Shown: positions 3,121 through 51,083 of the stretch, piece by piece
Layout of the letters: the number at the start of each line of letters is the position of its first letter
Numbering within the stretch: the stretch's first letter is position 1
From: Marsupella aquatica
Lineage: Eukaryota; Plantae; Marchantiophyta
Direction of reading: 5' to 3'
NCBI GenBank assembly: GCA_973895155.1
Contig: OZ316891.1
Coordinates: forward strand, 27,041,154-27,105,153
Length of the DNA: 64,000 nucleotides
Program-made: the position numbers and the translations under genes
Notes under the pieces: model-generated
Seen by the model: the letters and a program-made list of their open reading frames with translations, nothing else
What the model was told of the DNA's origin: nothing
The model's database searches: none

Positions 3121-3322
3121 ACCCAGGTCGTAGATTAGGTCTTATACGGACGTTAGGACCGTAGCTGTAGCGTAGAATAGCACGTATAGCCGTCTGTTGC
3201 CATTATGAATAGATTAGGAGTAGGTTAAGATGACCAAATGATTACGAGTTCAGGAAGATGATTATTACGCGCGACCGAGGTACGGTGGCGGCAGCGGAGT
3301 AAAAATCAGTTAGAAGTCACGC

Positions 3323-21638: not shown

Positions 21639-24600
21639 AACTGGGCCTTATTAGTTCTTTTGGAGGTGATCGCCAAGCAGGTAGTTGTTTTGACTTCTAC
21701 TAGTTGTCGTGACATATAGTATCGTAGCCATAGTATATCGAAAACATACAAGTCACCGGCAATGCATATGTGCAAGATGCTAGCAACCAACATCCTTAGA
21801 AAAAGTCCAATCACATTCACAAGTGCCAAGAAAAAGCAACTGAGGTGGTATGTACATAGTGGAGGTGTAAACCTCTATATATAAAAGGCGTAAGAGAAAC
21901 AAGCGTACTGAAATCGAATCGAAACCGGCGAGATGCCAAGATCGGCCGGGAGCATCTAACGAATCACTGTGTGAATCCCGTGTACGGAACCGACGAGCAC
22001 TGTCTAAGCTCTGTCAACAGCGATTCAAGAAGAACTGAAAAACGGCAAAGAAAAACATGCCCTAAGTAGGTCCGGGTCCAGGCATCACACTAACAAACAC
22101 TTTGCTTCAAGAACGGCCCAGACTCGCTACAAGAACATGACACTAACTCAAGTAGTACACTAGCCCTAACTACATACCTAGCGGGCATGCGAGGGACATG
22201 CCAATGTGCACAAGAGGCACTATCCCTCGGCATGACATAGTGACACTTTCTTGACACCTTACTTGGCACCACTAGAAGAAACCGAGCCATTCTGAGACCC
22301 AGCCTTACATGACTTGTGTGAGACCTTTGAAAATAAGTGACTCCAAGGTTTAGGGTGTCATCTTTGTTACATCTTCTTGACTCACTTTTGGTGAAGTTCT
22401 GGGAAGTCATGTATTTAACTATTGGGAAAGTTGCTTCTGTAACTGAGTTAAGGCAAGTATATTGAAGTTATATAAGTGACCATGACTTACATGATTTCCT
22501 TGCCCAATACATATGATTTTGGATCCATCATATTAATCACATTATGTCATGCAATTATATATAGTTACCTCCCTTTGCTTTAACCATCACTGAGTTGCTC
22601 TTTATTGTTCCCCTGTAAGAAAGTATACATGACATTTTTACCCTAATTGAAGTTTAGGTAAGTAGGGCAAATTTGTGATTCTAGCTAGACAAGAACCAAC
22701 CAAATTTAAGTTAACATTCATGTACACGGCCGCAACTGAGTTCAAAAAGGTGTGAAAATTTGTGCCATGCCCCCAAAAATAATGATGCACCCTAAACCCT
22801 AATACTCTACATACATAGTTACCTTAAAAAAGTCACCACAACCAATTAGTGGTACTTGTCACATACTGCTCACACACATATTAAAACTCACTTCATCCAC
22901 TAACTCATTTTAAAAATTTGCTCTGCATATATACCCCATAATTAGCCAATATCAAATGGAACCCCCTTCATATGGGAATATTGAAGGGCCCAATTTAGGA
23001 CCTCTTTTTCCTTAAGTGCACAATGCAATGCCGTTGCATCAATTTCTCTATCGGAAGCCCTCTTCCAATGAACCATGTTGCGCAATTGCAAGTTGATACC
23101 AAAACTTTTGACTGCCAAAAGCTTTTGTGGAGGGACTTGGAGAAAGAGAGAGTGCGCCCGCAAAGTGAGAGTCTTGTTGTTTCATGAGCGGGAAAGTTTT
23201 CACACACTAGTAGAAACCGGGGCAATTTATATGTCAAGGCTAGGGGGTGGCTGGGTTTTCACTAAAGGGGGTTTAGGGGGGGTTTGATGTCAAGGGTCGG
23301 GGGTTGCATGTTAAGGGGATGGGGGTTTAGGGACCATTGGATCGTCGGCATCCATCCCCCCCGGTCCATTCTTCATCCATTTAACCCTCTTTTGCCAATG
23401 ACTCCAAATGTCCAATGGGTTTTCAGAGGGTTTATGCTTGAGGAGGGTGAGTTTAAGGGTAGGTGTTGTTTTTTGCCATCTGGGTGACTTAGGATATTTA
23501 TCTAACCCAATGACTATACCCAAAATACCCAACTAAAAGCCCCCCCCCCAAAAAAAATGCATGCACCCTTGGTCTTAGTTACCGTTTAATCCTAACTGTG
23601 AACTTACGTCTAAATGTGTTAGGTGCTTGCAGAATGCCTATGAACGAGTCCTTCCAGTCGACTCAATGTTTAGGGTAAACGGATTTTGTAAAGGAAAATT
23701 GCACAAAGTGTCGACGGCTACCACTAGGGTTTTCCTTCACGTTTCTGCAAGGGAATCCAAGGCCAAACACTTTGCGCCCGATAATGCACTTTTCCTCAGT
23801 TGCTCTCGACTCTTGCACCTGATCGCACTCAGTCAATACATTTAGCGCTTTTGGAGGTGGGATTTCATGTCATTGCGTAGGGCTTGGAGCTTCGACCTTT
23901 GCTATATGACCCATTGTCGACTGCAATCTCACTATAGGGTTTAGGTGGGCCCTAAATCTTACATTCGTCTTTCCTGTGGTGACAACGCGGGTGCTAAGGT
24001 GTATAGGAGCAAGGTTGTTGGGAGGTTTATCGCGGATGACTGGCGATTGGTGAGGCCTATTTGCATTCATCTCCACTATCATTGGGTACCCGAGATACAA
24101 CGATCGACCTTCTATACAGAGGCGAGGAAGTGACGAGAACCTACAACTCTTTGCGGGAATGCGTGGTCTTCTGCTTACCTGATTGCCCTCATGCTTGACT
24201 GTAAATACATTAGTAAAGTTTTGCTTTGGCTCAACTTTGGTCTTTTTTGGCCTTGCGTGACTGCGCTCACTTCTCTCGGTTTCCAGTGTGTAGTTGGCTA
24301 AAGACCTGGATGTCATGCTGTGAGCGCAAGCTGCTAGTAGTTGTCCATAGCTTGGGGAAAGCGGTGGGGACTGAGGCCACAAAGGAGTTTGACCTGCGCT
24401 TTTTTTTCTTTGCAGCAAGAGCGAGAGTGAGACGAGTTGCAAATTGAGTTTCATTGAGCTGCTGCCCTGGGCTTGGCGGAGGTCCTACACTCTTGTGTCG
24501 CTCACTTGTTCAGCTCGGGGTTCAGCTGCGGTGGGAGCGGGCTTTTGGTAGTGACCTGTTCAGTTGCAGTGGGAGCTGACAACTTTGGTGGCTGTGGTGT

Positions 24601-27436
24601 TGAGCTTCTGAGGAGGGCAAGCAACTGCGTGATGTGCCCTTGAGTGAATGTCTCTTGGAGGAGCTGCGAAGTGGTGAAAGGGGAAGGAGGTGAGCTCGGG
24701 CCTGGAAGCAATGTGCTTCTCCAACATTTTTGCACAATGCAATGCTGCTCAATCGTTTATCCTTCCTCTAAAGCTGAGTGTGATGCATCGACCTTTGACG
24801 AGAGTATCTGCATTACAGTTTGCTACATACGGCTGCTCTCTGTGTGGCAATCGCCAATAGCTAGCGCAATGGAGGGTTTGACGTCAACTTTGAGTCATTG
24901 ATCAGTGCACACTACATCGCTCTCCCTTTGCTAAACCCTTTCTTTTGGCTTGGTTCTTGGTGCCTTTGGCATAGGAGCGACGTTATTGCTAATCAACTCC
25001 CGAATCAACTTTGGAGGTGCGGGTTAGAAGGGGTTGGAGAGAGGAGGTCCAAACCGAGAATGCCCTTCACCGTCAATGGTTTCTACTAGTCCCGGCCATG
25101 CAGCTGAAAGTGCGCTTCTTTCAGGTGTCGTAGCATTCTGCCAGCCGGGTGCTTGGACTGCAGAGAAGAGCAGCCACAGTCATTCAGTTCTTCTCCTAGC
25201 TCAGCTGCGCATTGTCAACCATCGAGCGCTGCTGCGCGCTAGCTGTGAACCCCAAGAGGAGCTGCGACAAGGAGGAGATGCAACCAAGAGGAGATGCGAC
25301 CAAGAGAAGCTGCTGCATCCCACATTGAGTTGGACATTGAGGTAGGGACGTGAGCTACGCACTTTCAACCATCAAGCAACCACCAAGCTCGGCAGCGCTC
25401 TGGGATTTGTTGGCCACAACAGACAAAGCGGAAGACAAAGGTGAGTGTTCGTGCACCGTTAGAGTAACCGCAAGTACTCTATTACATGCCTCGTTGTTCT
25501 CTATTACATGCCTTGTTCTCCCGCCCACTGTTTCCTGCGATTTTCTTTCTTCCATAAGAGAATGGTGATTTCTTCTTCTATCAAACAAAACCCCACCCAA
25601 CCACCACACAAGAACGTGGGGTGCGCGCTTCTTAATCCTCCTCAAACTGGCCCATTGTTCATTGAAACCCCACATATTACCCACCGGCACCAAGGGTCCA
25701 GTCCCAACCCGTCTTCCGCTCCCCACCATCTTCACTCTCTCGCGCATCTATCTCCTGAACGGCGTCGCTCTCCCTTAGACGCAGAATGCTCCGCTGTGAT
25801 ATTGCCTCCAACTTTTCTAGTGCAATCTAGGCAATTAGACTGCTTTTGCGAAAACTGCCCTTCTTAAAAGTGAGCAATACTAATAAGCCCCGGGGGTGGA
25901 GCGTTTGTTACGATGGCCGTGGACCTACCGTGGGCTATGGTAGAACACTCTATTGTCTATGATGATTCTGAATCTGCTTGAACTGCGAGTGGATGTGCTT
26001 TAAGGCAAACTTGTCGGAGAAATTAGAATGGGGGGACGGAGCTGTCAGTGCTTAGGTTGTGGCATTTTTGAGATTGTCAAGAGTAATCTGTGATCTCATT
26101 TCTAAATGGTTTGAGCTCCTCTGATGTGCATAGGAATCGGGCTGAGGAAAGCTTTTGGGAGCTATCATCGGAACTAGCTTTCGATCTATTTCTGCTACTT
26201 TTGAATTGGTACTTGGGAAGGCTTTGTATCGTTAAGCACTACAAGATTCACAGGCCAGACCTGCTTGCTAGTATGAGGGGCTTTGAAGGAATGTGTGGCC
26301 AGGGCTGATTAAGTATGGATTAATTTTGCATTGCCTGAGATACTGAAACTGCCACCCGCTTTGTTTCAATGCCTTTGATATTAATTGTTAATATCTCAAG
26401 AGGGTCGTCAACTAAGCTGAAAGGAGTCAAAGCTAACTACAAGCTAGCAAATACAGAGAATGCTCCCAAGTCGAGTCAGGAGGAAGTTACTAAAACTAGA
26501 CCTTCACAACTCTCGAAACTGGAAAGTGAAATTCAGCGTGAGACACGTAGTTGAAGGCCACAAGGATAACTATATGGCCACGCTGTCCCCCATTCAAGTC
26601 CAAAGTCCTCTTCAGATTGTCTGAACTCCTATTGAATGTATTGAATAATTATTTCATCACAGAAATTTTCAGAACAAACACGAAAGCACCAGGGGGCTGA
26701 GGATTGGATATTGAGGCTGAAGACATTGAGGTCATAAACTAGGTGTGGTTCGGGTGACAATGTTAGCAACTGATGCTTCTTCAGGGGAACTTCCCATGTG
26801 CAGTTTATCCACACATGATTGACTTTGGTTCTTGCTATTTTTCTTTTGGTGTACTCTTGAGTTTGATGTCACTCTATCCTTTCCTGTAGCCTCGAAATAG
26901 GAACACACCTGCTTAGTGGTCCCCAATCGCCCAATGATTTATAATGACTGTGTCTAGGTGATGTATGCATTGCGTGTTCATTCCAGAAGAATGAATATGT
27001 ACACTTTGCACAAACCTGGACAGATTTTGAATGTTATTTATCTGAGTTTCTGTTTGTGAGCTCTAACTTGGAGCCTTAACATTTGTGTTTCTGTGGGGCT
27101 GAGCAGAGTTTGTTCCGTCTAGAAGCTGCTGTACTGAAGTGATCAGCCTCCGGCTTGGAGGTGAATCTTCAATTTTTTGTGGATTCGAGTGACTTCTGTC
27201 CAGCTGAGTTTTGCTTTGTCGGGACGATTGTGTTTGGCTAAGATGCTAGATTGTGGCTTGTCTTCTTGCTTCCAGCTTGTGTATTTTCAATTAATAGAAG
27301 TTGGGAACGAAGTGATAATTGAATTTCCTTATATTAAGCATCTTCACCTAGAAACTCAATACATAAACTCCAGGATTCCCTCGGGACATAAAATGAGCCA
27401 AATTGTCTCAAAATTGGGAACTTGCACCCGCACTAC

Positions 27437-27779
27437 TCAAACAATTGTGTTGGGCTTGGTGGCCTTGTAAGTCTTCTTTAGCTTTCGCAATGGAGGTTGA
27501 ATCTTGCAGTACGTCAAGGGGAACTTGATCTTTGAATCATGGAACTGCTTGGTACTTTCTCGCTTGCACAGAGAGACAGGGACTGTCGTAGTCTTCATGA
27601 TCTGGATGCAAGGGAACCGAACTCTATGACAAGAAGCCATCTCATCATACATCTGCTCTGCAGCTCCGTTTCTTGTGGTATCACAATATTCCTTGTACAT
27701 GTTGTGATAACCTGTACGACTCTGATACGTGGACCCAGATACCGAAGTTCTTAATTGTGGTGGGCTTCTTTTCGAAGAT
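27437..27779 (-). pseudogene. RPL18a: Captured last exon of 60S ribosomal protein L18a (eL20), frameshifted
   Basis: After a TACCAG acceptor: [16 protein letters not shown]-(frameshift)[14 protein letters not shown].[47 protein letters not shown]...KTYKATKPN. Confidence 0.93.
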
Positions 27780-28787
27780 CTGGTAGACACATTATTCAGC
27801 ATTTGCTAACTTCGAAACTAGAAGGGTAACACATTAAACAACAGAGAAACTCACAACATCCTCCTTTGGTCCTTCAGAGTCTGTACTTTGATTCTGAAGT
27901 TTGACTGAGTTTTTGTTTACTAAAAGAATGTGACTGTGTAAGAGTTCCATTTGGCAGTGGATTGGTTGAAGCACTTCATGCTAGTGTGTTGTCCACAGCT
28001 CTTCAACTAGCTTTCGTCTTCCTTGTCTTTCACCACTTACGATGACATCAATTCAGCTAAGACCATAGAAGGTTCCAAAGCATCTAACTTGTAAAATCGC
28101 ATTCTGTTACATCAAGGACTAAGGTGTTGGGTGCCAAAGGAGACAGCACAACAAACACGCTGAAAAGACTTCAGGACTGGGTTCAACAAGGTAGTGAAGG
28201 TGCTTAGAGCCATAGTAAGTATGCATTCTGTATCTTTCTCTGTTGATGTGAGCTTGTGCATAATGGGAGTTGTAGTTGGCAAGAGTTCCAAATATGAATA
28301 GATCCAGAAGTATGTGATCATGTACTTGCTCTATAAAGTTCTGAAGATATAAGCATTTTCTGTTAGACCAGGCAACTTGGGAGTTGGTAAGTGTCACCTG
28401 CATCTGAGGGGCTACACCGGGGCATCAGTGGAGGTTCACTTGCACAACACGACAACCAGTGAATTTTCTCTCTACTGCAACCTGCAAGGTGAGACTTTCG
28501 GTCTTTCTGGATGAAAAAACAGGAGTTTAATATGATTGATATACATGTCCGTCGAGAATATGGGTTTATCACCAAGCTCTTTGTCTTAGGAAACTCATAA
28601 ACTCAGAATCAAATATGTACTATGCACGTTTCATGCTATGTGTATACTATGACCTGTAGTTGGAACCAAGACAATGAGTGGGAACTGATTAGTTTAGGTG
28701 GTTGTTGTTGGCGAGGCAAGTCGACCTCCTGCTCACCTTGCTCATCAAAGGACGTGAACAGAGGACATCACAACGAAAGCAACACTT

Positions 28788-29237
28788 ATGGTGAGGACCC
28801 GCAACGCTGAACATGTGCGACTTGCACGCAAGGCAGAGATGTTGCGCCTTGAGTATGTCAGACTTGGGATCCTTCCAGCCCAGTCTGCATGGTACTTTGA
28901 GTACCCTGTTGTTTCCAGGAACAACTACAGTCGGCCTCTACCTGCTTCAGTACCCTTCCCGACATCCTTGGTATTTGTGTCTCTTGTACATGACCCGCCA
29001 CAAATTAGGTGCCAAGGGTGTGTACACAGTTGCCAATATGACTGTCCTGCCTGTAGGGCTTCTGGCCCAGAATTGGATGACCGTTCTCTTGGATACCGAT
29101 TTTTGCACAGAGCACAATGTATCATCTGGAACCACTCGCCATCCTGCAGTGTGCCTGGTGATGTCACTTGTCCTGCCCTCCCAGACCCCACCACCGGTGA
29201 CTTTGGTGTCTACACATGTTTGGATCACATGCTCTAG
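28788..29237 (+). CDS. CACTA cargo: 149-aa Cys/His-rich protein of unknown family
   Basis: Intact ATG-TAG ORF; MVRTR N-terminus; CQGC-H-C-CPAC-H-C-H-C-C-C-H pattern; homologue at 58851. Confidence 0.55.
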   Translation: MVRTRNAEHVRLARKAEMLRLEYVRLGILPAQSAWYFEYPVVSRNNYSRPLPASVPFPTSLVFVSLVHDPPQIRCQGCVHSCQYDCPACRASGPELDDRSLGYRFLHRAQCIIWNHSPSCSVPGDVTCPALPDPTTGDFGVYTCLDHML

Positions 29238-29852
29238 AGGACCACTTGTCACACCGCATGCACAGACCAGATACCATTGACCTATAGCTTAACACTCTGA
29301 CTTCAACACAGAGGATATTTACTTAAAATTTTGATGTATGAGCAATTTTGGGTCCAGGGTTTAGGGTCAACAGTACATAACTTATATCCTATTATGCCTG
29401 CACTAAGCAAAATATCCTAATTTAAGAGGCTAGCAAACTCGCATAAAAGTCTCTATTGAAAGACTGCTTTCATGACTGCTTTAACCTGGTGAACATTGCA
29501 ACGTTCAATGAATTAATGGGCCATGTGATAATATGAAAAATGATTTATGCCTCACTTATTTGTCTCAGCCACTATCATAACCTATTTAGGATGTATAAAT
29601 TTCAACCCTTATGACACTGCTTCATACCAATCCTCTTCGAAGAATGCCTGTTTTACATGTCACAACTATTGTATGTGATTCAAATGCATGAAATGTTGTT
29701 GCAGATCTCCTTTGGTGAATCATAGCCACAATTAAAATTGCGGTGTTGGTGGAGAAATTGTATTAGGGGATCAGTTTTGTGTGTGGGCTCAACATACCAA
29801 AAGTATGTGTGCTCTGCATCCTTGTGTGGCCATTCCAATTCATTGCAGTAGC

Positions 29853-29996
29853 AAATGCCTTTGTACCTTAAATGCTAAATATATTTTACTTTCTGTGCAG
29901 TCTGCTAAATTGTAGAGTCTATCTAAATGCCTTTGTACCTTAAATGCTAAATATATTTTACTTTCTGTACAGTCTGCTAAATTGTAGAGTCTATCT
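29853..29996. repeat. 72-bp tandem duplication immediately upstream of the PHD ORF
   Basis: AAATGCCTTTGTACC...GTAGAGTCTATCT occurs twice; also present at ~59920-60062. Confidence 0.9.
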
Positions 29997-30007
29997 CATG
30001 CGCAGGC

Positions 30008-30688
30008 ATGGCACGGCCTAAAATTCAAGCCAAAAAGCGTGTGACAGAGGTGAGAAACACAGGTGTACTTGGGGCAGATGCTACTAACTTCTCTGCAAGT
30101 CAGATTTTCCAGAAGGCAGCTCATTGTTGTGCCATTTGTGACGATGGTGGGGGCCTGGTCATTTGTGAGGGCCCTTGCATGAGGCATTTCCACCTCAACC
30201 CGGAGTCTGACCTTGCTGCAGAAAACAACTGTCCAGGGGTGGGCCTCCCGTCAACACACCAGGGAGACTGGATGTGCACTGATTGTTTGGAGAAGCAGGC
30301 TAAGTGTGCACAGTGTGGGAAGTTGGGGTCCTATGAGGGCTCTGTTAATGCTGCAGCAAATGTTAGGAAATGTCCAGACCGTTTTTGTGTGAGATTTTTC
30401 TGTTTTGAGTGTTTGCCTGCTCATGCCACAGCTTGCCCACTTCATAGGTGCAAGGCATGTGGTGAGCATGATGATGACTACTGGACTGACATAGTCCACT
30501 GTGCTAGGTGTCCCACTATGTGGCACTATCATTGCCTGAAAGATCATCAAGCAGAGGGTTATGCTTGTGACAGAGAAATCTATGATCACTCTGCACATGG
30601 TGTTGATCGATGGATATTTTATTGTCATCGCCATGCCATTGATCCTACCTCGCGCACTCCTGTGAGAGATCACATATCTTGGCTGTGA
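30008..30688 (+). CDS. CACTA cargo: stand-alone EDM2-type multi-PHD finger protein (226 aa)
   Basis: CAICDDGGGLVICEGPCMRHFH...C..C....CAQCGKLGS...C....C..FF...C...CPLHRCKAC...CARCPTMWHYHCL...IFYCHRHAIDPTSRTPVRDH parallels the EDM2 PHD region as recalled (CAICDNGG..CEGSCLRSFH...CPLHKC..C...CRRCPKSYHRKCL...IYC..HEID....TPVRDH). Confidence 0.88.
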   Translation: MARPKIQAKKRVTEVRNTGVLGADATNFSASQIFQKAAHCCAICDDGGGLVICEGPCMRHFHLNPESDLAAENNCPGVGLPSTHQGDWMCTDCLEKQAKCAQCGKLGSYEGSVNAAANVRKCPDRFCVRFFCFECLPAHATACPLHRCKACGEHDDDYWTDIVHCARCPTMWHYHCLKDHQAEGYACDREIYDHSAHGVDRWIFYCHRHAIDPTSRTPVRDHISWL

Positions 30689-31280
30689 AGCTGAACATTG
30701 TACATGCACAGTGCACCTGATGTGGATGTACTATTTTTTGAGATTGCAGAGATTCCAATTTTGAAAAGGAGTTGGGTAGGCGAGTTTATATAGGCAGCAC
30801 TTATCTTGTGCTCTGGCGTCAGTGGTTGGGTACATGCCTATACAAACTTATCCTTACAAGCCTTCTTGGAAGTATTTAGGCTGAGTGGTCATTTTCATAA
30901 ACACTTTCATCAGACTGCTAAATTAAAACAGGACTTCTAAGTTGTAAGCGTATAAATTATCAGGCATGCAATTAATCAAATTGCCCTATAAGTTTGTCAT
31001 TGAATGTATCCTCCTTTACAACAAAATATGTATGTGCCATGACAAGTTGGTTGCACTTCATTTCACCACGGATATGGATTTTGTAGTATATATTCAAACA
31101 ATGTCCTGCATCCGTGCAGGTGCCTAGTACATATTGTTCACATATCCCTTGTACCTATCAAAATCGGACCTGAGCACCAGTGGGCCAGATCAACTCAAAA
31201 AGCAGGAATTTTGTTGTCCTTGTATTGTCAGGTGAACCCATTCTTCCAAAATTCACTGTCATCACGTAGAGTGTGTGTAC

Positions 31281-32153
31281 ATGGAGCCTGGTAAACGTAG
31301 AAAGTGTGACCACCCAGCAGTGTTTACAGGGGTCAGAGCGATTTTGGTCCATGGCCAGCATGGGTTGACCAAAGTGCATTGGCCAACTGTACAGAAACGA
31401 TTCTCTGAGCTCCATGGCACTGTAGTTCAGGACATCACTCCAGAGACTACACATGTTGTTGCAGGGACATGGCTATCAGTGATAAAGAAGTGGTCATGGT
31501 CCTACATGAATTCTGCAATTACTAAGCAAGGCCTAAAAGTAGTTGAGGCCTCTTGGATCACAGATTCCATAGCACATAAGATTGTACAGGATACTGAGCA
31601 ATATGAGTTGTGGGAGGATGAAGAAGCTTCTGCATCAGCTTGGGCTGAACAAGAAGTCTGGGAAGCAAAGGCACGGCTTGCTGATCTCCAATATGGACCT
31701 GTACTCAACAAAGGACAGAGCTCTACAAGGCTGAAGTGTATGTTGGCTGAGGAGACAAAGCAACCAACCCCCATTCTGAAAGGGCTGAGCATGGTATTTG
31801 TGGAGGCAGGAATTGGAGAGGTTAAGTGCAAAGTGTACAAGTCCACAGTGCTTGACCTAGGTGGGACAGTGGAGGAGAATATAACAGAGGACACCACTCA
31901 TGTCATTACTAAGTCATATCCCAAAGCCTGTCGCAAGTTTGGGAAGGGAGACATTCGCTTTTATGTCATGTCCCATAATGTGTTTGTGGTTTCATATGCT
32001 TGGCTTGTGGAATCAGTAGCAGCTGGGAAGCGTCAAAACCCAATGGACTATGATCTTTTTGAGGCCTGGCCACGGAAGGGTCAGGATCCTTACAGAGAGG
32101 ACTATGAGACAACAAGTGAGGAATGGGTCATTAGCGATTCTGAATCAGAGTGA
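31281..32153 (+). CDS. CACTA cargo: tandem BRCT-domain protein (DNA polymerase lambda-type BRCT), ~290 aa
   Basis: Two repeats with F/L.G...V..G, GTV...IT..TTHV and W..DS/ES...Y.L motifs. The second has VEAG...KFGK...YAWLVES..AGK, resembling the plant Pol lambda N-terminal BRCT. Acidic C-tail. Confidence 0.85.
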   Translation: MEPGKRRKCDHPAVFTGVRAILVHGQHGLTKVHWPTVQKRFSELHGTVVQDITPETTHVVAGTWLSVIKKWSWSYMNSAITKQGLKVVEASWITDSIAHKIVQDTEQYELWEDEEASASAWAEQEVWEAKARLADLQYGPVLNKGQSSTRLKCMLAEETKQPTPILKGLSMVFVEAGIGEVKCKVYKSTVLDLGGTVEENITEDTTHVITKSYPKACRKFGKGDIRFYVMSHNVFVVSYAWLVESVAAGKRQNPMDYDLFEAWPRKGQDPYREDYETTSEEWVISDSESE

Positions 32154-32586
32154 GGAGTAGTAGCATCAGTTTGGACACAAGTTTTTTTGTATAAATCAGA
32201 TCATTGAAATAAATGTGATCTTTGAACTAATGTACCTTGTTATGGTTGGTGGCAGTTGGGCTTATTTTACTATTGGCGGATTGTTGTTTCCTGCTGCCTG
32301 GGGGTGTCACTGTAAACGTACATGCAGAGGCGGTACATTTGAGGACAGCGGAGGAGGTGGTGACACCCTCCAACATTTAGGAATTTTGTGTCATTCACTT
32401 GACAATAGGTACACTACTTGCGAACCTGTTTTTTTCTTTTGGGGTGGTTTAGGGTTTGTGAGAATTTAGTACACGTTATGTTAACTCTTTTGGCAGATAC
32501 AGTCAGGGATATATGGAACACAAATACCACCATTAGGCATCCTTGTTCACTGCTGTCCATGACTGCAGAGCTCCCAGCCTGTTACA

Positions 32587-35500
32587 ATGCACCCTGGTCA
32601 CCACCCTCCCCAGACCCAGCCCAGGGCACAGGCACTGCCTTTGCATCATCCCACAAGGATATCACGCCATGATAATAAGCTTTGGCAGCGTGAAAGGTTA
32701 CGAACCAGACTTTCAGGAGCCAGTAGGATGAGATGTCCTTGTGCAATCTGCCAAGGATCCCGTACCAGGGGTCTGAATGAGGTTTGGCGGCATATCGCGG
32801 TTCATGGAAGAGATCCACGACATCGAGTTTGGAATGATCCTGCAGAGGAAGATTCTTCCGACGAGGAGTGGAGGTTAGAATTTGATGCTGCCAATGCTGC
32901 AAGACGGGCAAGTGAGGTTCTGCCTGGTGCATTTGAAAATGTTGTAGCTGGTGGTCTGTGGGTTGTCAGCTCTCCAACGGGATGGTGCTCAGGCAGCACC
33001 ACGTGACGAAGGAATTCATGTGGAAGAGATGGTGAGAGACATCTTCCAAGACTTGGATGCATTTCATGATGGGCTGGACAATGAAGAGGATACGGCTGCA
33101 GATGCAAGTGTGCCCCCTGTCGAAGAGCCTCTTGATGAGTTTGAGATAGGGCAGGAAACCCCTGGGCATGATGGGATGTTTGGCTCTCCCCTGCAAATAC
33201 AGGAAGGCAGGAAGTCTTTGTACCCCGGTAGCAAATGTTCTAAACTGGGATTTGTCATCATGTTCCTGAACATTTGCGGCAACCACAATGTCCCCAACAT
33301 TTTGGTTTCTGAGTTGTTGGCATTCTTGCGAACAACTGTGCTACCAGATGGTAATATTTTGCCCAAGAACATGTACGAGGCAAAAAGATGCATATCTAAT
33401 CTTGGATTGAACTATGATTCGATCCATGCCTGTCCTGATGGGCATGTTCTTTTCAGAAAGGAGTATAAAGAATCGTTGACATGCCCTAAGTGTGGGAAGC
33501 ATAGGTATCGGAACTCAGGAAAGTCTATGGTTCCCGCCAAGGTACTTCGTCATTTTCCACTCATTCCCAGACTTCAACGGATGTTCAGAAGCCGTGCCAT
33601 CTCGGAGATGATGACTTGGGCAACTGACAAGAAAAGTGATGATGGGCTACAACGACATGCTGCAGATTCAAGGCAATGGAAACTCATAGATGAGATGTAT
33701 CCCGAATTTGCTGCTGAGCCGAGGAATGTCAGACTTGGGCTGTCATTGGATGGGGTAAACCCATTTGGAGACAAGAACAACAAATTTTCGTGCTGGCCTG
33801 TAACTATTTTGAATTATAACCTTCCTCCTTGGATGACTACAAAGCGATTTTTTGTTCTGATGGTCCTACTGATACCAGGGCCAGACAGTGCTGTATCTGC
33901 CAACATAGATGTGTTTCTGGCTCCCCTAGTGGAGGAATTGAGAAAGCTTTGGGAGGAAGGAGTTCTCACATATGATGTCCTACAGAGGCTTGGGAGGTTA
34001 AACCCATTCATCCTTAGAGCCATTGTCATTCTGACTATAGCTGACTACCCAGCCCATGGGATGATATCAGGCCAAACAACAAAAGGATATTGTGCTTGTA
34101 CTACTTGTGGGCGCAATGTCACCAGTGAGTACTCCAGAGCCCTGCAGAAAGTGATATACATGGGCCATCGTTGTTTTTTGAAGGCAGATCACCCTTACAG
34201 AGAAAGACAAGCACTGATTGCACACTTTGGCAATGAGATTGAGCAACGTGGACCCCCGGCACGAGTGACCAAAGAGGAGATCAGGCAGTGGGGAGCACTG
34301 AGGGATGACTATATCAAACGAGGGGGCAGGGAAGATGGAGTGAGTGATCCAATAAAGCGATATGGTGTAAAAAGACTGAGCATATTGGACTTGGAGCTCA
34401 AGTACTGGAGGGTAAGCCTCTTGGAGTTGATGCTAATTGGGATACATGTTTTGGTTCAGAGCATGTGCATTCATTTCGAAGAGAGAGACTAAACTTGAGG
34501 CATTTCCTGACGCTTTTGCATTGCAACGATGCAGGAGTTTGAGCCAAGCAAACATAACATTGATGTTATGCACATTGAAAAGAATATTTGTGAGAGTCTA
34601 CTCAGATTCTTGTGTGGAGAGAAAGACACTGGTTCAGTGAGATTGGATCTTGAACAGAGGGGAATGAAACCCCATCTTTGGTTGAGGCCACATGCCCACA
34701 GAGCTGATGTGCTCTTGAAGTACCAAGCGCCCTATGTTCTGACAGACACAGAGTGGGAACTATTTGTGCAGAGGTTGAGTTCTTTGAAGGTTCCTTCAAA
34801 CTATGGCAGTGCTTTCAAGAAGCATATCATGAATAGAAAGCTTGGTAGTATGAAAAGCCATGACTACCATATGTTGATGCAACAGGTGTTGCCTTTATGC
34901 CTGAGGGGCCTGTTGCAGAAGCCTGTTCGTACTGTGATCATGCGACTCAGTGATGTGTTTCGTCGTATTTGTGTGAAGGTTTGGGATGAAACACACTTCC
35001 CACAACTGACAGAAGATATCGCTCAGGTGCTGTGTGACCTGGAGATTTATTTTCCTCCCGCATTTTTTGATGTCATGACCCACCTACTTGTCCATGTTGT
35101 GGAAGAGCTACACCAATTTGGGCCTGTGAGTGCTCGTTGGTTGTACCCTTTGGAACGGTACATGAAGCTACTCAAAGGTCACGTGAGAACATATTACAAA
35201 CCTGAAGCAAGCATGGCTAAAGGTTACATCAAGGATGAGACTCTGGGATTTCTGACCGAATACATAGCACAATATGAGCATGTGAAGACCAGGGTGTGGA
35301 ATTCTGATGAGGAGGAAGGGGTGATAGGTGAAGTACTGGAAGGGGCTGCAACCACAAAGAACCTGACCATATCTATGAGAGACTTGGCACATGACTTTGT
35401 ATTGCACAACACTGTGGTGATGGAACCCTAGATACAGTGAGTGCATACATGTGCTATAATCCAGTTCATGAGCTTAAATGTTGTGTTCGTGTGGTTTTCT

Positions 35501-36319
35501 CCTTCAACCTGTTCATGTTTACCCAAGCTAATGCTGTGTGGTTGTTTGTTTAGGGAGTATGAGTCATTGAAGGCGGCCCATCCCACTGCAGGAACAACTT
35601 TTCCAGGTTTCATGGAGTGGATCAGAGTGGCAATTAGAGAGCATCACGAGACCCACCCAGACATGGATGCAGATGTTTACCTACTGTCTAATGCCCCTAG
35701 CCTGAAAGTGAAGACTTACAAACGGATGAGAGCATATGGGAATCACTTCCGAGTGAAGGATGGTGACAGTGCCTACAGGGTGACGAATGACTGCGGGCTC
35801 ATCACTGTATTTGAGCAACAGAGCCACAATCACGACAGGGCCTGGATGGAGATGGGATATGTGGGAGAATTAGTTGACATATGGGCTTTGGACTATGGGG
35901 CGGTGTCCAGTCCTGTGATTCTTATGAAAGGTTCATGGGTGCGGCAGGATTGGCTTGGTAAGAGGGCTACCATGAAGAGAGACAACGACGGTTTCTTGCT
36001 GGCCAATTTCAGAGGAAAATTGCCCGAATGGTCTGAGCCATTTGTGTTTCCTAGTCAGGTGGAGCAAGCTTTCTTCCTGGATGTGGAAGACTCCCCAGGT
36101 TGGCGTGTAGTGTGTCATAAACAGGCCAGGCAACGTCAGATGGAAGGATCAAACCTTGAGTTTCATTTACACTCTCATAGTGCCTTTGATCGTCGGCGTT
36201 CAGACCAAGTGCCTGTAGTTCATGATAGCGGGGACTTCATTCCTGTGACAAGGGTAGATGCATTTGCTGAAGGAGGCGAATTCAGAGATGCAGATGCCAA
36301 CAGTGTGCCTGTGCCATGA
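32587..36319 (+). pseudogene. CACTA TnpD/Tnp2 transposase (transposase-associated, Transposase_21, DUF4218, DUF4216 domains); introns 34412-34534 and ~35437-35553; frameshift near 32950 and TAG at 35429-35431
   Basis: Motifs CPCAIC..H, IHACPDG, FAAEPRNVRLGLSLDGVNPF, YNLPPW, IDVFLAPLVEELRKLW, DVMHIEKNICES, MKSHDYH, FPPAFFDVMTHLLVH, WLYPLERYM, EPFVFPSQVEQAFF. Confidence 0.95.
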
Positions 36320-36475
36320 GTAATGTGAATTGTTTGCATGGACATTAGTGAGGGGAAGGATGTGTAATAAAGTAATTCTGAAGCAACACAGATGTATGGA
36401 TGGATGCCTGGTGATTGTGGTTGCATTGTGTTATACGGGGTGACCATAGATGACATGTTTTTGTGGTCCAGTAGG

Positions 36476-39400
36476 ATGGAACAGAGTGACACAGAGATGT
36501 GTGAGTATGAAAGGAAAGCTATGGAACAACGAGCATACGTGAAAGCCAAAATCGCAGAACTGGATCTGGAAAAGGATGTGGCTGAATTGTAAGGGAACGA
36601 TTCTCAACTACACCCCTCCGCTGAGTTTGTGTGACATGAATAGTTCAATGTGGCACTGAAATTGTGACTGTATTCTCATATTGGAATGTCGCAAAGCCAC
36701 AGCATTTTCAAAGAAACAAAAGGAGTACGCAAGAAGGGTGACCAGCACTATCTCTGGGCCTGTGCGTCGGAGTGACAGGTTGAGCAAGAAGGTCGTACCT
36801 ACAATGGCAGAATGTGGAGATGACATTGATGCTGCACAGGTGGGTGCAGACACTAGACAAGAAGATGCAGATGATGAGTATTTTCCAGAGGAAATAGATG
36901 AGGATGGGGGTTATGAAGATGAATACATTGCAGAGCAGCCCCAAAAGAAACATGTAAGTAGTTTTCCCAACAAGGTTTTGAGTTAAAAACTCGTGTTTAG
37001 AGGTTTCATATGTTCAGTACTACACATATGTACCTTGCTTAGTTCCTGACATTGTAGTTGGTGATGTGATGCAGCGTCCTGCCAGTTCTGTTTTGCCTTC
37101 GAAGCCTGTGCATGCACCATACCAGCAGGGGGGGCTGACCTCTGATCAAGGTTGGCGAGGTGGTAGTAGTGGTAGATCCCAGGCTGGTGCCCAATACTAT
37201 GGCAGGGGGCAAGCTCTAGGTTATGCCCGTGGTAGAGGCAGAGCAGGTCCAAACCCACAATCTCGTGGGTATGGACGTCCACCTCAACCATGGGGATGTG
37301 AGTATATATCTATATGCCAGTTCTTTGTGAAGGCATGGCACTCCTGAATTTCAGACTGCATATCAATTTTTGACATTGTTTGGGATGTATTGGATTCAGA
37401 CAACATGAAATTCTGTCCACCTGCCATTGCATGCAGATTCTGCCCAACCTGATTGGGCAAATGCTAGTAATGATCAGTTCCAATGTCCACAAGGACAGAC
37501 ATGGGTTGAACCAGGTTGGGAGGATGGTGGTGGGTCGTGGAATGAACAAGGTTGGGAAGGTGGTGAAGGTAATTGGCAGGGATATCAAAATTCAGTACCT
37601 ACAAACGCTGGAAGAGGAGCAAGTAATGTCTGATCTTGTCAGCAATGGAAGAACTCATTATATGTGGAGTCCATTCACGTGGGGGGGACTCTGCACATGT
37701 ATAATGATAGAAAATGTATGTGTGCAGGTTGGACAGTCGAACCATCGACTCAAGTATTCACTAATGCCCCTATGCAGATGCAGCACGGAAGGGGGACAGG
37801 TATGTCGGTGAATGTTCAGTTGTTTTCCTACAGTTTGTACTTAGTTTTCAGTACATATGTTTGCACACACATACCTAGAAAGTGACATCATCCGGCCCCT
37901 GTACTAGGCTGGACAGGTGGTCCAGGGTCGCAACAATTTCAGAGTGTAGTCCCTGCACAGGCATCTACAGGCAGAGCTACAGGTATGTATGTTTGAAGAA
38001 TTTTTCTTGAAGTGAAGCATTGAATGTTGCCGTCATCCATTCTGCTATATGTAGTTCTCAAGCATGAATGGCATTGTATTTTCCCAGGTGGCTTCAGAAC
38101 CCCAGGTAGGGTGAATGAAGGGGTGGCCAATACAACGCCCAGTACTACCGAGAGCAGTGCACGAGGGGAGGTGACAAAGAAAGGGAACGTAAAGTTGAAT
38201 GAGAGACAATGGGTGGATGCTGAGTGTCCTCGCAAGAACCGATGGCATGCTGATTTGAAAGCTGAAGTATTGCGTTGGTTAGATGTGAGTGTTATTAATT
38301 TTAAAAAACAGCATCCAAAAGATTGGAAGACTGTATGTGAAAATGTTGCTGCCAAATGGAATTATGTGGGCAGTGATGATGGCGTGGACATAGGTTGCCT
38401 AGAGAGTACAGCAGGTAAAATTATCAAGCAAGAGAGGTGGAGAATGCATAAGGCTTGGAAGGAAGGTGGGGAGAAGCCAGATATGCCTCCACCAGCCAGT
38501 TGTGATGATAAAGTGTGGGCAAGGTTAGTAGCTTATTTTGTAATAGATGCTTCAAAAAAGAAGAGTTCACAGATGACCGAGGCCAGGTTGAGTGTTCAGA
38601 ACCCTAATCTGACAAGAAGGACCGGCACTGCACCGACAGCTAAACGTTTGGTAAGAATGAATGGCCTAGCTATGTAATTTATGCTACACTATGTACTATT
38701 TTTTAGTGTAAACCCATACATGTAAACTTTGTTTTTTAGTGTACGTTCCCTGAATATTGATCGATAACTTGTGTTTGCCATGCATGTGCAGAAAGCCCAA
38801 TTGGGGCAAAGCCCTTCAAAAGAAGAGTTGAGGGCTGAAATTGTGAACACCCGGGCTCAAGAGGGTGCATCTGAATCCTCCAAGCATGTAAGTTATATGA
38901 GTTCTGATTGGTAATTGAATGACCTGCGTTGAATTTCAGGTGTACACTGTATATAACATTGATTGTGCATATATTGCCCAACATTTCATATGGAGTGATT
39001 GAACCTATACCCCTGTGTCATGTAGGGAGGTGGATCTTCACTTACAGAGATAAGTGGTCGTTTGAAGGCTGTCGAAACATGTCTTCCAGAGATCAATGAA
39101 CGTTTGAATTCATTGACTGACTTGTTCCATGTGAACTTCAAGACATTAATGGAAGCTGTTGTGTCGGTGAGAGATAAAATTGATTCCAATTCTGCAGGAG
39201 TTCCACCATCACCACTTGAGGTGGCAAAGTCGATGCACTCTTCTGGCATGCCAACGACATGTAGGCTTGAAGGTAAGGCCTTTACAACTGTGTGGGATAT
39301 GATTATTAAATGTATAGTTTGAATTGACATTGTTTGTTGAATGTGTTATTTTCAGTAACATATATTGTGGTTGTTGTGTCCATAGAGAATAAGATAGGTG

Positions 39401-40182
39401 CTACAGAGAAGAAGTATGAGAACCTGGCAAATACTCGCTGTAATTTAGAGGAAACAAAGTTGCAGTCTGTACAAGCAACTTGTTTGACAGAGGGCAGTCA
39501 ACCATGTTTGGATGAGGATGACATTGGCAAGGGAGTGGATGATATCAATGTTGGGGCAAATGAGGATATCAACAAGCATGACAATGATACCATTGAGCCA
39601 GATTCATGCTATGTAGATCTTGACTCCATTGCAGAGATAAATGATTTGCAGAATGTATCATTCTCAATGACAGGTGTGCCTCTTGTTGAGATAAATCCAA
39701 CCAAAGAGTTAGTTGGTATGACACTCCCAGGTGATGAACCTGCTACTGAGACAGTCCTAATAGAGGAACCTACTGAGCCTAGCTTCACTACTGTGAAGAG
39801 AGGAAGCATGCGCACACGAAGCAAGTCTGCTGGTGGGAGCAGAGCCACATCAAAGGTTTCATACAAACCTCCAAGAACAGTGCTGGCAGAAAGATCTAAG
39901 GTGGAAGTGGGGAAAGCACCTAATGCTGAGGGACAAAGTGGCTTGTTAGCTGTTGATGAGAGTGGAACACGAGTAGGATTTGCCAGAGTGCAGGTTGGTT
40001 CCACAACGTTCCATGGCAAGAGGATTCCCCCAGGTTATTCAGTAGTGTTAGTCACATTACTAGTGAAACCTAAAGCTGTCCTTCCCATTCCAAACACAAA
40101 TGATGATCCTCCTCAAAAGACACTTGGAGATGCTGCAGGTTCTTTGGTATTATGGCCAAGCAAGTTCATAGAGGATCCATAA
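36476..40182 (+). CDS. CACTA TnpA-like multi-exon gene (exon structure approximate)
   Basis: Series of GT-AG bounded coding segments: EYERKAMEQR..., RRSDRL, G/Q/R-rich low-complexity exons, a Ptta/En/Spm-like W..L..YF...KKKSSQM..AR segment (38089-38650), and a C-terminal FHGKRIPPGYSVV.V...LPIP....TLGDA.G..VLWP motif typical of CACTA ORF2. Confidence 0.8.
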
Positions 40183-40682
40183 CAATGTCATGCCATTATT
40201 TGTTTGTAGTGTGAGTCATGTTATGTAGATTTTAGATGTCAAGAAGCAGTACAAGAATCATGTCCTCTTGGAGATTCATAGTATCATGCATGTGCTTTCA
40301 GTTATCTCATCCTACAGTCATCAATTATGAGTTCCTGTTTTGTCTAAATTACATTGATCACATTGTAAACTATTCCATTGGAATTCAAATGATCTTCATT
40401 TTTTAGCAAGATTGTGATTGTGTTTAATTCTTATGAATGTTTTATGTAGGATCTGCTTATATGATGCTTTGTTTCATGTGGATGTCATTCATGCTATGTT
40501 CATTTCTTGTATTCAATGTGTTATATTTCTAAAGTTAGAACATCAGGTTTCTATGTATTGTAATGTCGAGTGCTCTCTCTCCTTATGAACTATCCCTCTG
40601 TGTTCATTAGTCATGGTTATAACTTGCATGTGAACCTTATTAGTTATAAACATGAGTATATAGAGTCCCAAATGGTTCTGTT

Positions 40683-41037
40683 GTGTGACGCGGGCCAGGG
40701 TCTCCATTGGTCTCTCCTGTGACACTAAATAGTCACACGCTAGTCGTTGTTGAATGCGGGTAAGTCATGTATGTGACTTACGATGTGACTCGCTGAAGTC
40801 ATATTGCAGTCACGTCGAAACAAGGCTAGACTCCACAATAAAGTCACAGATCAGTCACAAATGGGTATCAAGCAAGTTGCAAAGCCCAGTATCAATAGTG
40901 ACTTCCATTTTTTGGTCTCAACTTTTGCAACTCCAAGGGTCACAGCGTGGGTCAAGTCACGTTGAGTCACAATGAAGTCACATGAGCCAAAATGAGTCAT
41001 ATATTGCGGTCTCAGTTCACCTCGGATTCTTCTAGTG
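40683..41037. repeat. CACTA right subterminal repeat array (GTGAC/GTCAC/GAGTCA)
   Basis: More than 10 direct and inverted copies next to the right TIR; the same motifs occur at 22300-22500 and 53370-53540. Confidence 0.8.
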
Positions 41038-41461
41038 CACACATCTACTTTTTGAGAGGTTGCTTATTACTATTGGAGTTGAGCAATTCAAGAAGGAGAG
41101 TGAGACACTTCAAGCTTCATCAGTCGGAGTTAGCAAAAGGGTTCACTCCACCACCCACAACATGCATCACCAAGACCACCCTAGTGGAGTAGACGTTGAC
41201 AATATCAGATTTACCAAGGATGACTTCTCCCACTTTTGTTGCCTCCACTTCATACATTTCATCGACTAACTTCATCGGTGATGCTCAAAGACTAGCTAGT
41301 GTGGTTAGTTTCAACCAATATTTGGTATACAAGGCTACTAGGCTTTTGAGTTGTACGGTCCCACCATAGTTACTTGCTTGTATTTTTAGTTTGATTTTTG
41401 ACCCTCGCTCTACTCCACTTCCCCGTGTTCCATCGTTTGTACCTTCACCCCAGCCAGATTT

Positions 41462-43400: not shown

Positions 43401-44411
43401 CACCTGTGCATTTCCCTCCTAGTTTGTTAGGATGATTACTTCACTCATTGACACACACGTCACTCTTGCGCCATCATTACTTCCACTTATGTGTGGTTGC
43501 CAGTCTTAGCTTTTCCCTTTGTGCATACCTATGACATGGTCCTAGTTGCTTTTGGTACTCTATGGCTTCCTTTCGACAAGCTGCACATGCCAGAGATTAA
43601 GAATCTTGACTTGTGGAGTTTGATTTATCATTGTAGAGAGGTCATTGCACCTTTCCCCTTTCCAGCCCCAGACATTCTATGGCCTTCAGATTATCATGTT
43701 TGGATTGGACCGGATGAACATCCCATCTGGAAGTCCAATGAGCCACACTTGATTCAATTTCGTGAGGACCTATTTGGTCAACAATATTTGAAGGGCAAGA
43801 AGGTTAGGGGGAAGCTAGCAGTTGGTTGAGTAGCTTGCCTTCCTTTACTTATAGTTGACCCTCCTCCTATTGTGATATGAGGTTTTGTACCTCATTTTGT
43901 AGTTTTTTAATTAGTGTAATTTAGCTTTGAATAATCGTACTACTCTTTCGTCAAGGTTGACTCTTATGTGTAACTTAATTTGTTAGACTTAGGAGATGAA
44001 AAGGTGTGTCTTTTCACTCTCCTTAGCAAGTGGGTCACTTTATGTATTTATTTATTCTAGTTACATAATTCTTATTTGAGATAGTGTGGATAGTTATGTG
44101 GATTTCCTCATCTTGGAGTTTGTCCTTTATACTTATAATGTATTTTTGCAACAAAAAAATTGTATACTTTGAAATGTGATTACTTGTGCTATGAGTCTAT
44201 CCCTCCTTTGTGTGGCAATGCATGTTGCAATTGCCATAAGAAATAAAATACATAAAAATATTATTTGTAGTTTGTATTGGAAGATTTGTTGATCTATGCT
44301 TAATTCAATTAAACTGCAACATTTGTTGTAGATTTCTCTATTTTACATGAATGATCTATCTTGGGAGATAAATATTGCTTGTAAGTAAGAAAGAGAAATC
44401 TATGTGTTAAG

Positions 44412-44579
44412 TGTTATAAGGGCTAAAACCCTAACCCTACTTACCCTAGAATGTAGGGGAACGGAGGTTACATAACTGCCGATATACCATGTACTACATA
44501 GGGAGAAGTTTACTCTCCCACAAGGTAATGAAGGAAGTGAGCTTGCTGGTGTATGTGTGTCCATGGTTGATGCATAATA
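44412..44579 (+). repeat. 5' LTR of the Bianca element
   Basis: Matches 50916-51083 except for one C/T difference. Confidence 0.95.
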
Positions 44580-44907
44580 CGTCATCAGCACGACTCTACA
44601 TTTGGAGCACAACCTTTGATTTAATTTTTCTTAGCAAATCGATTCAGTGAATCTATGTGCACATTTTGAACTATTGATTGAATTAAGACCTTTTGTATAT
44701 GATTCGATTTACAACGACAATTTCAAGGATCAGGAGCACAAGCATCTTTGGTCAATGCGAGGGAGTTCTTTTTCTCAACAATTTCTTTCCATCTGAATTT
44801 CTTAGACATCAAGGCCATAACTGATTTACAGAATCCAGGCAGAACATAATTCACAAATTCCTGGATATAACTCAATTTGAGATCAAATTACCATAACTCC
44901 TATTACA

Positions 44908-47900: not shown

Positions 47901-49599
47901 ACCTGCAGGACTTCATCTTACAGGTTACAGATTCATTTTCGTCAGAAAACGAAATGCAAAAGGAGAAGTGATCAGACATAAAGTGCGCTTGGTCGCGAAG
48001 GGCTATACCCAGATCCCCGGCCGAGACTTTGATCAAACATACTCTCCTGTAATGGATTCAATCACATATAGATATCTAATCGCATATGCTCTTATGAACA
48101 AAGTAACTAGTTATGCATATTTTAGATGTGATTACTGCCTATCTATATGGTATCCTTGATACCAAGATTTATATGAAGGCACCCCCGGAACTCATCAAGC
48201 GATTGATGTTTCACATTGAGGGGGAGAAAACCGGTAAAATAAACCCAGGTCTACAACCTGGAGTACATCAAACTTGTCCTACAGGCAATTTGAATTCAGT
48301 GACGACTGAAATCGGACCTTTAGTCCCGACTAAGCAAGATGTACTGCACACATCTGCTCAGAGGAAACGAATGTCTTCCTCACAGGTTACCCCTGTTATA
48401 CCAACAAAGAAAGTTAAAAGAGAACTTGCAGTTCAGGTACTTCGTTCTCTATATGGTTTAAAACAGAGTGGGCGGACCTGGTATAAACGATTCAAAGCTG
48501 AAATGATTACATTGAATTTTATTACTGATGATATTGCTCCGTGCCTCTTTATCAAAAAGGAAGGAAATGAATTTGTCATTATCGCAATTTATGTGGACGA
48601 CATCAATATTTTCGGCACAGCAAAAATCACAGCAGAAACAATAGAAATCCTGAAGAAGACATTCGAGATGCGGGATATAGGTAAGCCCACCTATTGCTTG
48701 GGCTTACAATTTAATCACCTGCATAATGGCATACTAGTTAATCAATCGACCTACACTGAGAAGGTATTAAAACAGTTTAACATGGTTGTTGCTTACCCTG
48801 TAAGCACTCCAATGCATTTAAGATCCTCAGATCCTGCAAAAGATACATTCAAGAAATGGAGTGCACCTGAAGCAATTCTTGGCCCATAAAAACCTTACCT
48901 CTATGCGATAGGTGCTCTAATGTACCTGGCTACCCAGTCCCGTCCTGACATAGCTTTCGCAGTGAATCTCCTTGCACGCCATAGTGCAAAACCAACTATC
49001 CGTCACTGGAATGGAGTAAAGCGAGTGTTCCGTTACCTGCGAGGAACCACAGACCTGGGACTATTCTTTCCCAAGCAGTCAGAAATCTATTAGTGGGATA
49101 TGCGGACGCAGGGTACCTTTCCGACCCTGACGACGCAAAATCCCAGACAGGATATGTTTTTCTTCAAGGAGGTACTACTATCTCATGGAGAAGCTGCAAA
49201 CAGACACTGACAGCTACTTCTTCTAATCATTCGGAGATCATTGCCCTATACGAAGCCACTAGGGAATGCATTTGGTTAAGACATTTGATAGATCATATTC
49301 AGAAAAACACAGGCAGACCCCGATTTGATAAACCTACTGTTATATACGAAGACAATCGACCCTGTGTCGATCAGATAGTGCAGGGATTTATCAAAGGGGA
49401 TCGAATTAAACATATAGCACCCAAGTTCTTCTATACACATGAGCAGCATGGCGAACAGGTAAATGTGCAGTGGATTCCTAGCAAGGAAAATCGAGCAGAT
49501 TTATTCACGAAACCACTACCACCATCCCTACACAGGGAACATACATATGGTATTGGAATGAGGAGTATGAAATCACTACTGCAGGGCATTCATGAATAA
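44908..49599 (+). pseudogene. Copia gag-pol with stops (46534, 47758, 48887) and frameshifts (~48105, ~49090)
   Basis: NYLSW, CFRCG..GH...C zinc knuckle, CIVDSGTSH protease, WHNRLGH..CIAC, LERIQADVCGPIDPPSGPFKYF integrase, LYGLKQSG/YVDD RT, GYADAGY/YEDN/ADLFTK RNase H. Confidence 0.95.
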
Positions 49600-50915: not shown

Positions 50916-51083
50916 TGTTATAAGGGCTAAAACCCTAATCCTACTTACCCTAGAATGTAGGGGAACGGAGGTTACATAACTGCCGATATACCATGTACTA
51001 CATAGGGAGAAGTTTACTCTCCCACAAGGTAATGAAGGAAGTGAGCTTGCTGGTGTATGTGTGTCCATGGTTGATGCATAATA
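50916..51083 (+). repeat. 3' LTR of the Bianca element
   Basis: Follows the PPT and is followed by TSD TTAAG. Confidence 0.95.

Follow-up and report, generated by a model that had tools for sequence, protein, structure and literature searches.

Within the 64,000-nt stretch of Marsupella aquatica DNA analyzed here (the window), an intronless PHD gene is cargo of a CACTA transposon, in both of the copies that the window holds. Its product belongs to a separate family of EDM2-type PHD proteins which bear, on a variable linker, an N-terminal motif in register with the tail of histone H3 (Table 1). Judged by counts over the family, the likeness to H3 appears to lie far beyond chance and to centre on A1, R2, K4 and A7, with K9 weaker and R8 rare. 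As a tentative explanation, we propose that the tail is a putative H3 mimic that latches onto the PHD module of its own chain.

Table 1. Features of the CACTA elements and of the PHD gene (window positions).
Feature	Position	Strand	Remarks
CACTA element copy 1	22270-41037		18.8 kb; flanked by 3-bp target duplication
Left terminal inverted repeat (CACTAG...)	22270-22286	+	CAC target duplication before it, at 22267-22269
RPL18a (ribosomal protein L18a) fragment	27437-27805	-	Intronless; Pfam E 3e-18
149-aa ORF 5' of PHD gene	28788-29237	+	C-terminal half Cys/His-rich; no Pfam match
72-nt tandem duplication	29853-29996	+	Each unit with branch-point-like motif, U-rich tract and AG (29900, 29972)
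Upstream ORF, 7 codons	29998-30021	+	Out of frame; overlaps main ATG
PHD ORF (P0001), stand-alone EDM2-type triple-PHD protein	30008-30688	+	226 aa, intronless; Pfam, EDM2 comparison, AF2
H3(1-9)-like motif A-R-P-K-I-Q-A-K-K	30011-30037	+	Directly after Met (ATG at 30008-30010)
Variable unalignable linker, residues 11-27	30038-30088	+	Lowest pLDDT block (52)
Family-specific pre-PHD segment F/W-S/T-x2-E-x2-Q-x-S/A-P/A-H	30089-30124	+	Host EDM2 has an acidic run there
EDM2/NSD-type PHD module, three zinc-finger units	30128-30685	+	Ends in conserved TP-x-x-D-H-I-S-W motif
Tandem BRCT protein gene, second cargo gene	31281-32153	+	290 aa; open in copy 1; BRCT E 2e-13
Spliced CACTA transposase (Transpos_assoc, Transposase_21, DUF4218, DUF4216)	32563-36319	+	Pfam
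TnpA-like region	38024-40182	+	Weak Transposase_24 match, E 0.014
Right terminal inverted repeat	41021-41037	-	16/17 bases match the left one; CAC after it, at 41038-41040
CACTA element copy 2	begins 53334		Extends beyond window end
Second PHD ORF copy (P0002), same motif	60074-60754	+	Conserved Cys replaced by Tyr at 132 and 165

The element that carries the gene, a status on which the earlier note on this DNA was silent, was assigned to the CACTA (En/Spm) type by its inverted termini starting CACT(A/G) (CACTAG at 22270 and the reverse at 41037), by the 3-bp target-site duplication, CAC on each side, and by a Tnp2 transposase (Pfam: Transposase_21, E 1e-69; DUF4218, 2e-28; DUF4216, 1e-4). Across the first modelled intron, the transposase reading frame stays open for 786 codons; a single stop (35429-35431) precedes the last modelled exon. 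Directly 3' of the PHD gene in the same element lies the BRCT gene, a second chromatin/DNA-damage reader carried as cargo. Also present are an RPL18a fragment, representing captured host sequence, whose decay is greater in copy 2 and whose animal and fungal PDB matches score far below its best PDB matches, and the 149-aa ORF, which starts M-V-R-T-R, near the H3TM pattern (iM-Z1-R2-X3-K4) with R replacing K at position 4, and is frameshifted in copy 2. The PDB scores of the RPL18a fragment and the EDM2 relatives of the PHD protein both indicate that the DNA is of plant origin.

The two elements are 95-98% identical between 26382-33294 and 56145-64000, and about 97% around the PHD ORF. Copy 2 is decaying, two conserved PHD cysteines being Tyr and its BRCT ORF, which starts at 61347, being broken by a stop. 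The terminal 200 bp of both elements are only 75% alike and their left arms differ (53334-56144 and 22270-26381, respectively); this combination of differing ends and a 95-98% identical interior makes a hybrid or nested element possible. An insertion of ~630 bp (62392-63024), confined to copy 2, contains a 147-aa ORF (62504-62947) that we take to be F-box-like, although Pfam gave no confirmation. Comparison of positions 29600-30900 with four DNA runs recovered 618, 1904, 120 and 42 contig pieces at 80-99+% likeness, which is as expected for a repeat family, although such depth does not translate into copy number. Elsewhere, the window contains a host linker histone H1 gene (10231-10986, minus strand; Pfam E 8e-18), a Gypsy-type pol (143-5955, plus strand) with a long coiled-coil ORF behind it, and a Copia-type element (44410-51083) that appears to have inserted recently, since its 170-bp direct repeats (44410-44579 and 50914-51083) are 99.4% identical.

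The PHD protein had been taken for an H3 reader; Pfam and identity to EDM2 place it in an H3-reader lineage, that of the EDM2 type. It contains three PHD units of NSD-like kind (PHD-1st_NSD, PHD_NSD and PHDvar_NSD, all below the curated Pfam cut-offs) in which the Cys/His pattern is that of EDM2, identity to the EDM2 PHD regions of Arabidopsis, Selaginella and Marchantia proteins is 30-32% (E 1e-24 to 1e-29), and the best-scoring Atlas cluster (0.92) consists of NSD-like PHD proteins of streptophytes. A profile search of 1.84 billion representatives yielded 737 at E<=0.001; among the best 150 of these 737, a few short relatives rank first and EDM2-like proteins next, the latter including the Selaginella and Arabidopsis EDM2 proteins along with PHD proteins from Marchantia, Riccia, Calypogeia, Chlorella and Eleusine. 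The short proteins share 37-81% identity among the first matches, and family members have their first PHD Cys 29-48 residues after the start of the motif. All members other than those of the window lie in unannotated assemblies, and look-ups of the relatives found no named one. A metagenome scan retained one locus from 60 candidates, L001 (1.5 kb), on which the PHD ORF is frameshifted and no transposase was found. In a tree of 70 PHD regions (18 from the short family and 52 others, taken from 165 proteins without P0087, P0052, P0073 and five partial family members), the short proteins are set apart from the rest by a branch of length 0.97 (100/100). Being midpoint-rooted, the tree does not single out a donor lineage.

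The likeness to EDM2 (ENHANCED DOWNY MILDEW 2) thus resides in the same triple-PHD module. EDM2 proteins comprise 800-1600 aa with DNMT1-RFD-like and C-terminal regions, whereas the 226-aa window protein is without both, is intronless and transposon-borne, branches separately (stem 0.97, 100/100), and has the acidic run before PHD1 replaced and an H3-like tail added. An EDM2 orthologue was rejected on the basis of its length, its PHD-only architecture and its position apart from the named EDM2 proteins. A prokaryotic or viral origin was rejected too (viral scan 0/25; prokaryote scan 1/17, at E 2e-4, taken as chance). PDB searches turned up no solved structure of an EDM2 PHD module. Foldseek with AF2 model 1 recovered PZP and NSD PHD structures, six at E<=0.001 and with low TM-scores, and with AF2 model 2 no match at E<=0.001.

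At the N-terminus, the ATG followed by A-R-P-K-I-Q-A-K-K is present as the earlier note had it, and alignment to H3 residues 1-9, in the form quoted there, gives five identities of nine (A1, R2, K4, A7 and K9), position 8 being K and not R. In the copy at 60074, residues 1-51 are unchanged, and R2 is encoded by CGA instead of CGG. The two window copies were rejected as independent evidence, being about 97% identical over the motif region. Taken singly, the likeness is of modest significance (p = 0.023 when the 40-residue leader is shuffled), and a phmmer search of PDB sequences with residues 1-22 returned nothing at E<=10. The start M-A-R-P-K conforms to the H3TM pattern, as found in 11 of 23 family members, query included.

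Conservation was evaluated in 22 family leaders, the query, the near-duplicates P0002 and P0019, and P0021, P0048 and P0092 (no N-terminal region) being left out, with expectations derived from shuffled leaders. ARxK occurs in 13/22 (0.65 expected), ARxKxxA in 10/22 (0.04), ARxKxxAxK in 5/22 (about 0) and Met-small-R-x-K in 10/22 (0.2). RxK is found in 19/22 against 6.7 expected, with the control KxR in 7/22 against 6.8 and KxK in 12/22 against 7.5. With the query included, [AST]RxKxx[AS], a pattern picked after viewing the data, is present in 19/23 against 0.18 expected. Overall, 20 of the 23 family proteins having an N-terminal region bear [AST]-R-x-K near the start, and the motif is found in every large sub-branch of the family. 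The other three (P0004, P0005 and P0009) have no motif and an intact-looking PHD region, two of them retaining M-A-R.

Among the 20 bearers, position 1 is A14/S4/T2, position 7 A14/S5/I1 (a small residue in 19/20), position 8 K10/R1/other 9 and position 9 K11/R4/other 5; the invariance of R2 and K4 is partly by construction, since the motif was located by RxK. Conservation among homologues, proposed earlier as a check, therefore bears out A1, R2 and K4 but not K9 (11/20). Positions 3, 5, 6 and 8 are mostly unlike H3 (P, aliphatic, K and K), T3, Q5, T6 and R8 being mostly replaced, and H3 residues are gained by single members at T3 (P0016, P0113), Q5 (P0022, P0026, P0113) and R8 (P0020). An H3K9 mimic of the kind represented by G9a, for which A-R-K-S/T around the target lysine is reported (PMC8166343), was rejected, given the context A7-K8-K9-R10 and the R8 and K9 counts above. 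On a matrix of the 20 family motifs, H3 1-9 is outscored by 3 of 133,108 background 9-mers, all three internal to EDM2-like proteins (P0060, P0024 and P0174), by 3 of 4,316 basic background 9-mers and by 12 of 20,000 permutations.

The motif is held by selection, because the linker behind it is unalignable and variable in length, though shared ancestry explains the sharing itself. Column entropy is 1.1-1.8 bits at positions 1, 6, 7 and 9 and 2.8-3.8 bits at positions 10-20. In close copies, a variant list that leaves out rare changes and those near contig ends gives 15 changes over 29975-30085. The four that fall in codons 2, 7 and 9 are without exception synonymous, whereas nine of the 11 that fall in codons 6 and 10-15 alter the residue; codons 1, 3, 4, 5 and 8 have no listed change. 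The CpG of the R10 codon has a C>T change and that of R2 has none listed.

According to the proposed mechanism, the initiator Met would be removed and Ala1 exposed, and the tethered tail would fill an H3-binding groove in cis, most likely that of its own PHD module. Real H3 tails would then displace it, or the tail would tune the selectivity of the module for them; alternatively, modification of the tail at R2/K4 could act as the switch. The freed reader may bind chromatin at element copies and compete with, or stand in for, host EDM2, with the outcome that the element stays transcribed or chooses its insertion sites. The motif lies directly after Met in 11 of the 20 bearers. In the other nine, 2-7 extra residues precede it (MP[HST] in five, MFK in one and 6-7 residues ending in FT in three), so that a pocket for free Ala1 would be blocked unless these are trimmed.

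For the PHD finger of AIRE, D312 is reported to bind R2 of H3 and D297 to bind K4 (PMC2261226). Of these AIRE/BHC80-type positions, D312 aligns to E54 of the window protein, with D/E in 23 of 24 family rows, and D297 to His39 instead of an acidic residue, with His in 21 of 24. An AF2 model from 14 sequences with Met kept (model 1) has an overall pLDDT of 71.8, with residues 1-25 disordered and under 50; one from 85 sequences without Met (model 2) reaches 90.3 overall, with averages of 70 for residues 1-10 and 52 for residues 11-20, and assigns residues 5-6 to a strand and residues 7-9 to a helix. This pattern, read from the pLDDT and secondary structure of two models that differ both in sequence number and in Met, is a hint that the tail may be docked via a loose tether.

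Similar starts occur outside the family. Among the non-family matches listed, 13 of 137 begin with MAR, including EDM2 of Selaginella and EDM2-type proteins of Marchantia and Chlorella; the Selaginella and Marchantia proteins start MART, that of Chlorella MARA, and those of Riccia and Calypogeia MARV. In residues 1-60 of nine lycophyte, liverwort or algal EDM2-type proteins (P0035, P0029, P0042, P0087, P0089, P0102, P0024, P0025 and P0027), the MAR[TVA] start leads into a stretch that aligns loosely (W and, in several, R-x2-G-x2-AG after it), has no Pfam match and is absent from Arabidopsis EDM2. Three short EDM2-like proteins outside the family (P0053, P0061 and P0064, one from Eleusine) start MARxK ~44 residues before PHD1 and nest among seed-plant-type EDM2 rows in the tree, which makes an independent origin of this layout possible. 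The MAR starts can be read either as a recurrent pairing of A-R with a reader, as the self-docking mechanism would have it, or as a start that was inherited and serves some other purpose.

An inherited start is one form of a doubtful but still credible alternative: that the tail is a conserved basic signal, for nuclear import or for DNA/acidic-patch binding, or else a relic of the AR with which ancestral EDM2 began, its likeness to H3 being incidental. Plant start context favours Ala after Met, consensus positions 6, 8 and 9 are mostly K, against T6 and R8 in H3, and basic look-alikes are found inside EDM2-like proteins, high-scoring in P0060 and P0024. The algal, liverwort and lycophyte EDM2-type starts, with an apparent small conserved N-terminal domain and no K4, would suit a relic; AR, however, is kept even where it does not adjoin Met. 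Against a basic signal, R2 and K4 are not interchangeable, as the excess of RxK (19/22 vs 6.7) over KxR (7/22 vs 6.8) indicates, position 7 is small in 19/20, and H3 ranks above all but three of the 4,316 basic background 9-mers when these are scored with the family matrix. The same RxK and KxR counts weaken the caveat, raised previously, that basic MARxK starts are common as generic nuclear localization signals.

It is less probable, and on balance unlikely, that the mimic acts in trans, as a decoy or bait, held on chromatin through the PHD module, for host writers, erasers and readers of H3K4, EDM2 included. The motif conservation serves this explanation as well as it serves docking in cis, with which it is compatible and not mutually exclusive, and the residues that precede the motif are easier to reconcile with an enzyme substrate than with a pocket for a free amine. 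In addition, the N-terminus falls within the H3TM definition, in vitro binding to NuRD and to PHD/Tudor readers being reported for human N-termini of this kind (PMC8166343), and anti-silencing proteins encoded by plant transposons are on record (PMC5735166). The decoy idea had been put forward for both H3K4 and H3K9; a decoy of KYP/SUVH (H3K9) enzymes is less likely than an H3K4-centred role, because K9 is found in 11/20 bearers and R8 in 1/20.

A further possibility, that the ATG is internal, with an upstream coding exon spliced to the AG at 30005 and the motif not N-terminal, is highly improbable. The acceptor-like TGCGCAG pointed out previously is indeed present 2 nt before the ATG, and among the 16 AG sites in 29600-30010 the one at 30005 is a weaker acceptor candidate, the most U-rich being those at 29900 and 29972. 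Acceptors at 29900 and 29972 leave an in-frame stop before the ATG, whereas those at 29987, 29989 and 30005 do not. For the site at 30005, moreover, a branch-point-like motif lies 25 nt upstream, the read-through residues of P0016 and P0005 would be compatible with the same acceptor position, and no variants are listed in close copies over 29999-30010. However, of seven donor candidates (>=6/8, 27000-29950) joined singly to 30006, just one yields an upstream Met, adding six residues. Also, Met lies one or three residues ahead of the motif in 17 of the 20 bearers, including four with an earlier gene-caller start, and in L001 the position -2 has no AG and the frame is closed by a stop 17 codons upstream. 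The 150 best representatives of the profile search include no family-branch protein of greater length, and a search for longer proteins gave one match, EDM2-like and weak by the tool's own note. The ATG itself has G at -3 and +4. With single-intron models enumerated, a 5'-UTR intron appears the likelier reading, the 72-nt duplication likely being its 3' end, and a coding exon upstream seems unlikely. The splice and Met-position analyses thus reduce the earlier caveat about such an exon, although the AG at 30005 keeps the frame open.

Each ingredient of the proposed self-docking mimic has a known counterpart. EDM2 is reported to bind H3K9me2 chromatin, to raise or lower the silencing of transposons and to favour transcripts that run full-length through heterochromatin (PMC7529245, PMC3632883, PMC9910501, PMC9292364); from these reported roles one may speculate that a transposon-borne copy consisting of the reader alone could rival the EDM2 system or divert it. 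The human proteome is reported to contain 48 iM-Z1-R2-X3-K4 proteins, H3TMs such as VRK1, PCLAF and BCL11B (PMC8166343), relative to which the putative mimic of the window reaches further, to A7 and partly to K9, shares its chain with a PHD reader and comes from a plant transposon. In BAZ2B, a basic H3-like segment of the same chain is described as dampening H3 binding by its PHD, which is the model proposed here; that segment is an internal lysine-rich linker acting by charge (PMC5663869), while the window protein has a sequence-specific N-terminal motif and resides in a mobile element. VANC of the Mutator-like VANDAL elements is likewise an accessory gene product of a plant DNA transposon, with a possible anti-silencing role also conceivable here, but it belongs to another superfamily, binds DNA motifs, causes DNA methylation loss and has no PHD or histone mimic (PMC5735166). 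Pack-CACTA elements resemble the present one in holding host-derived sequence inside a CACTA, here also the RPL18a fragment (PMC13317346); they differ in that the PHD gene is whole, a selected ORF of an old family, and the element has a transposase. The literature searched, at the level of titles and abstract openings, with few subscription papers and no repeat databases, contained neither a CACTA-borne EDM2-type PHD gene nor an H3 N-terminal mimic encoded by a plant transposon, so that the ingredients are each known and their combination was not found there.

It is conceivable, if somewhat doubtful, that an old plant transposon family wields an H3 mimic and a captured EDM2 reader against chromatin silencing, and that EDM2-type readers are generally self-gated by A-R. 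Histone mimicry is known from viruses; if true, the present case would extend it to transposon counter-defence. To our knowledge, the escape of plant DNA transposons from histone-based silencing is for the most part unexplained, VANC, which acts via DNA motifs, being the example known in plants, and a reader-fused, transposon-borne H3 mimic would constitute a second route. With a protein of 226 residues and a peptide of 12, the mimic idea is directly testable, and the window protein would offer a compact model, of high confidence, for the PHD module of EDM2. The same finding, if true, would hint that EDM2-type readers carry a mimic of their own ligand.
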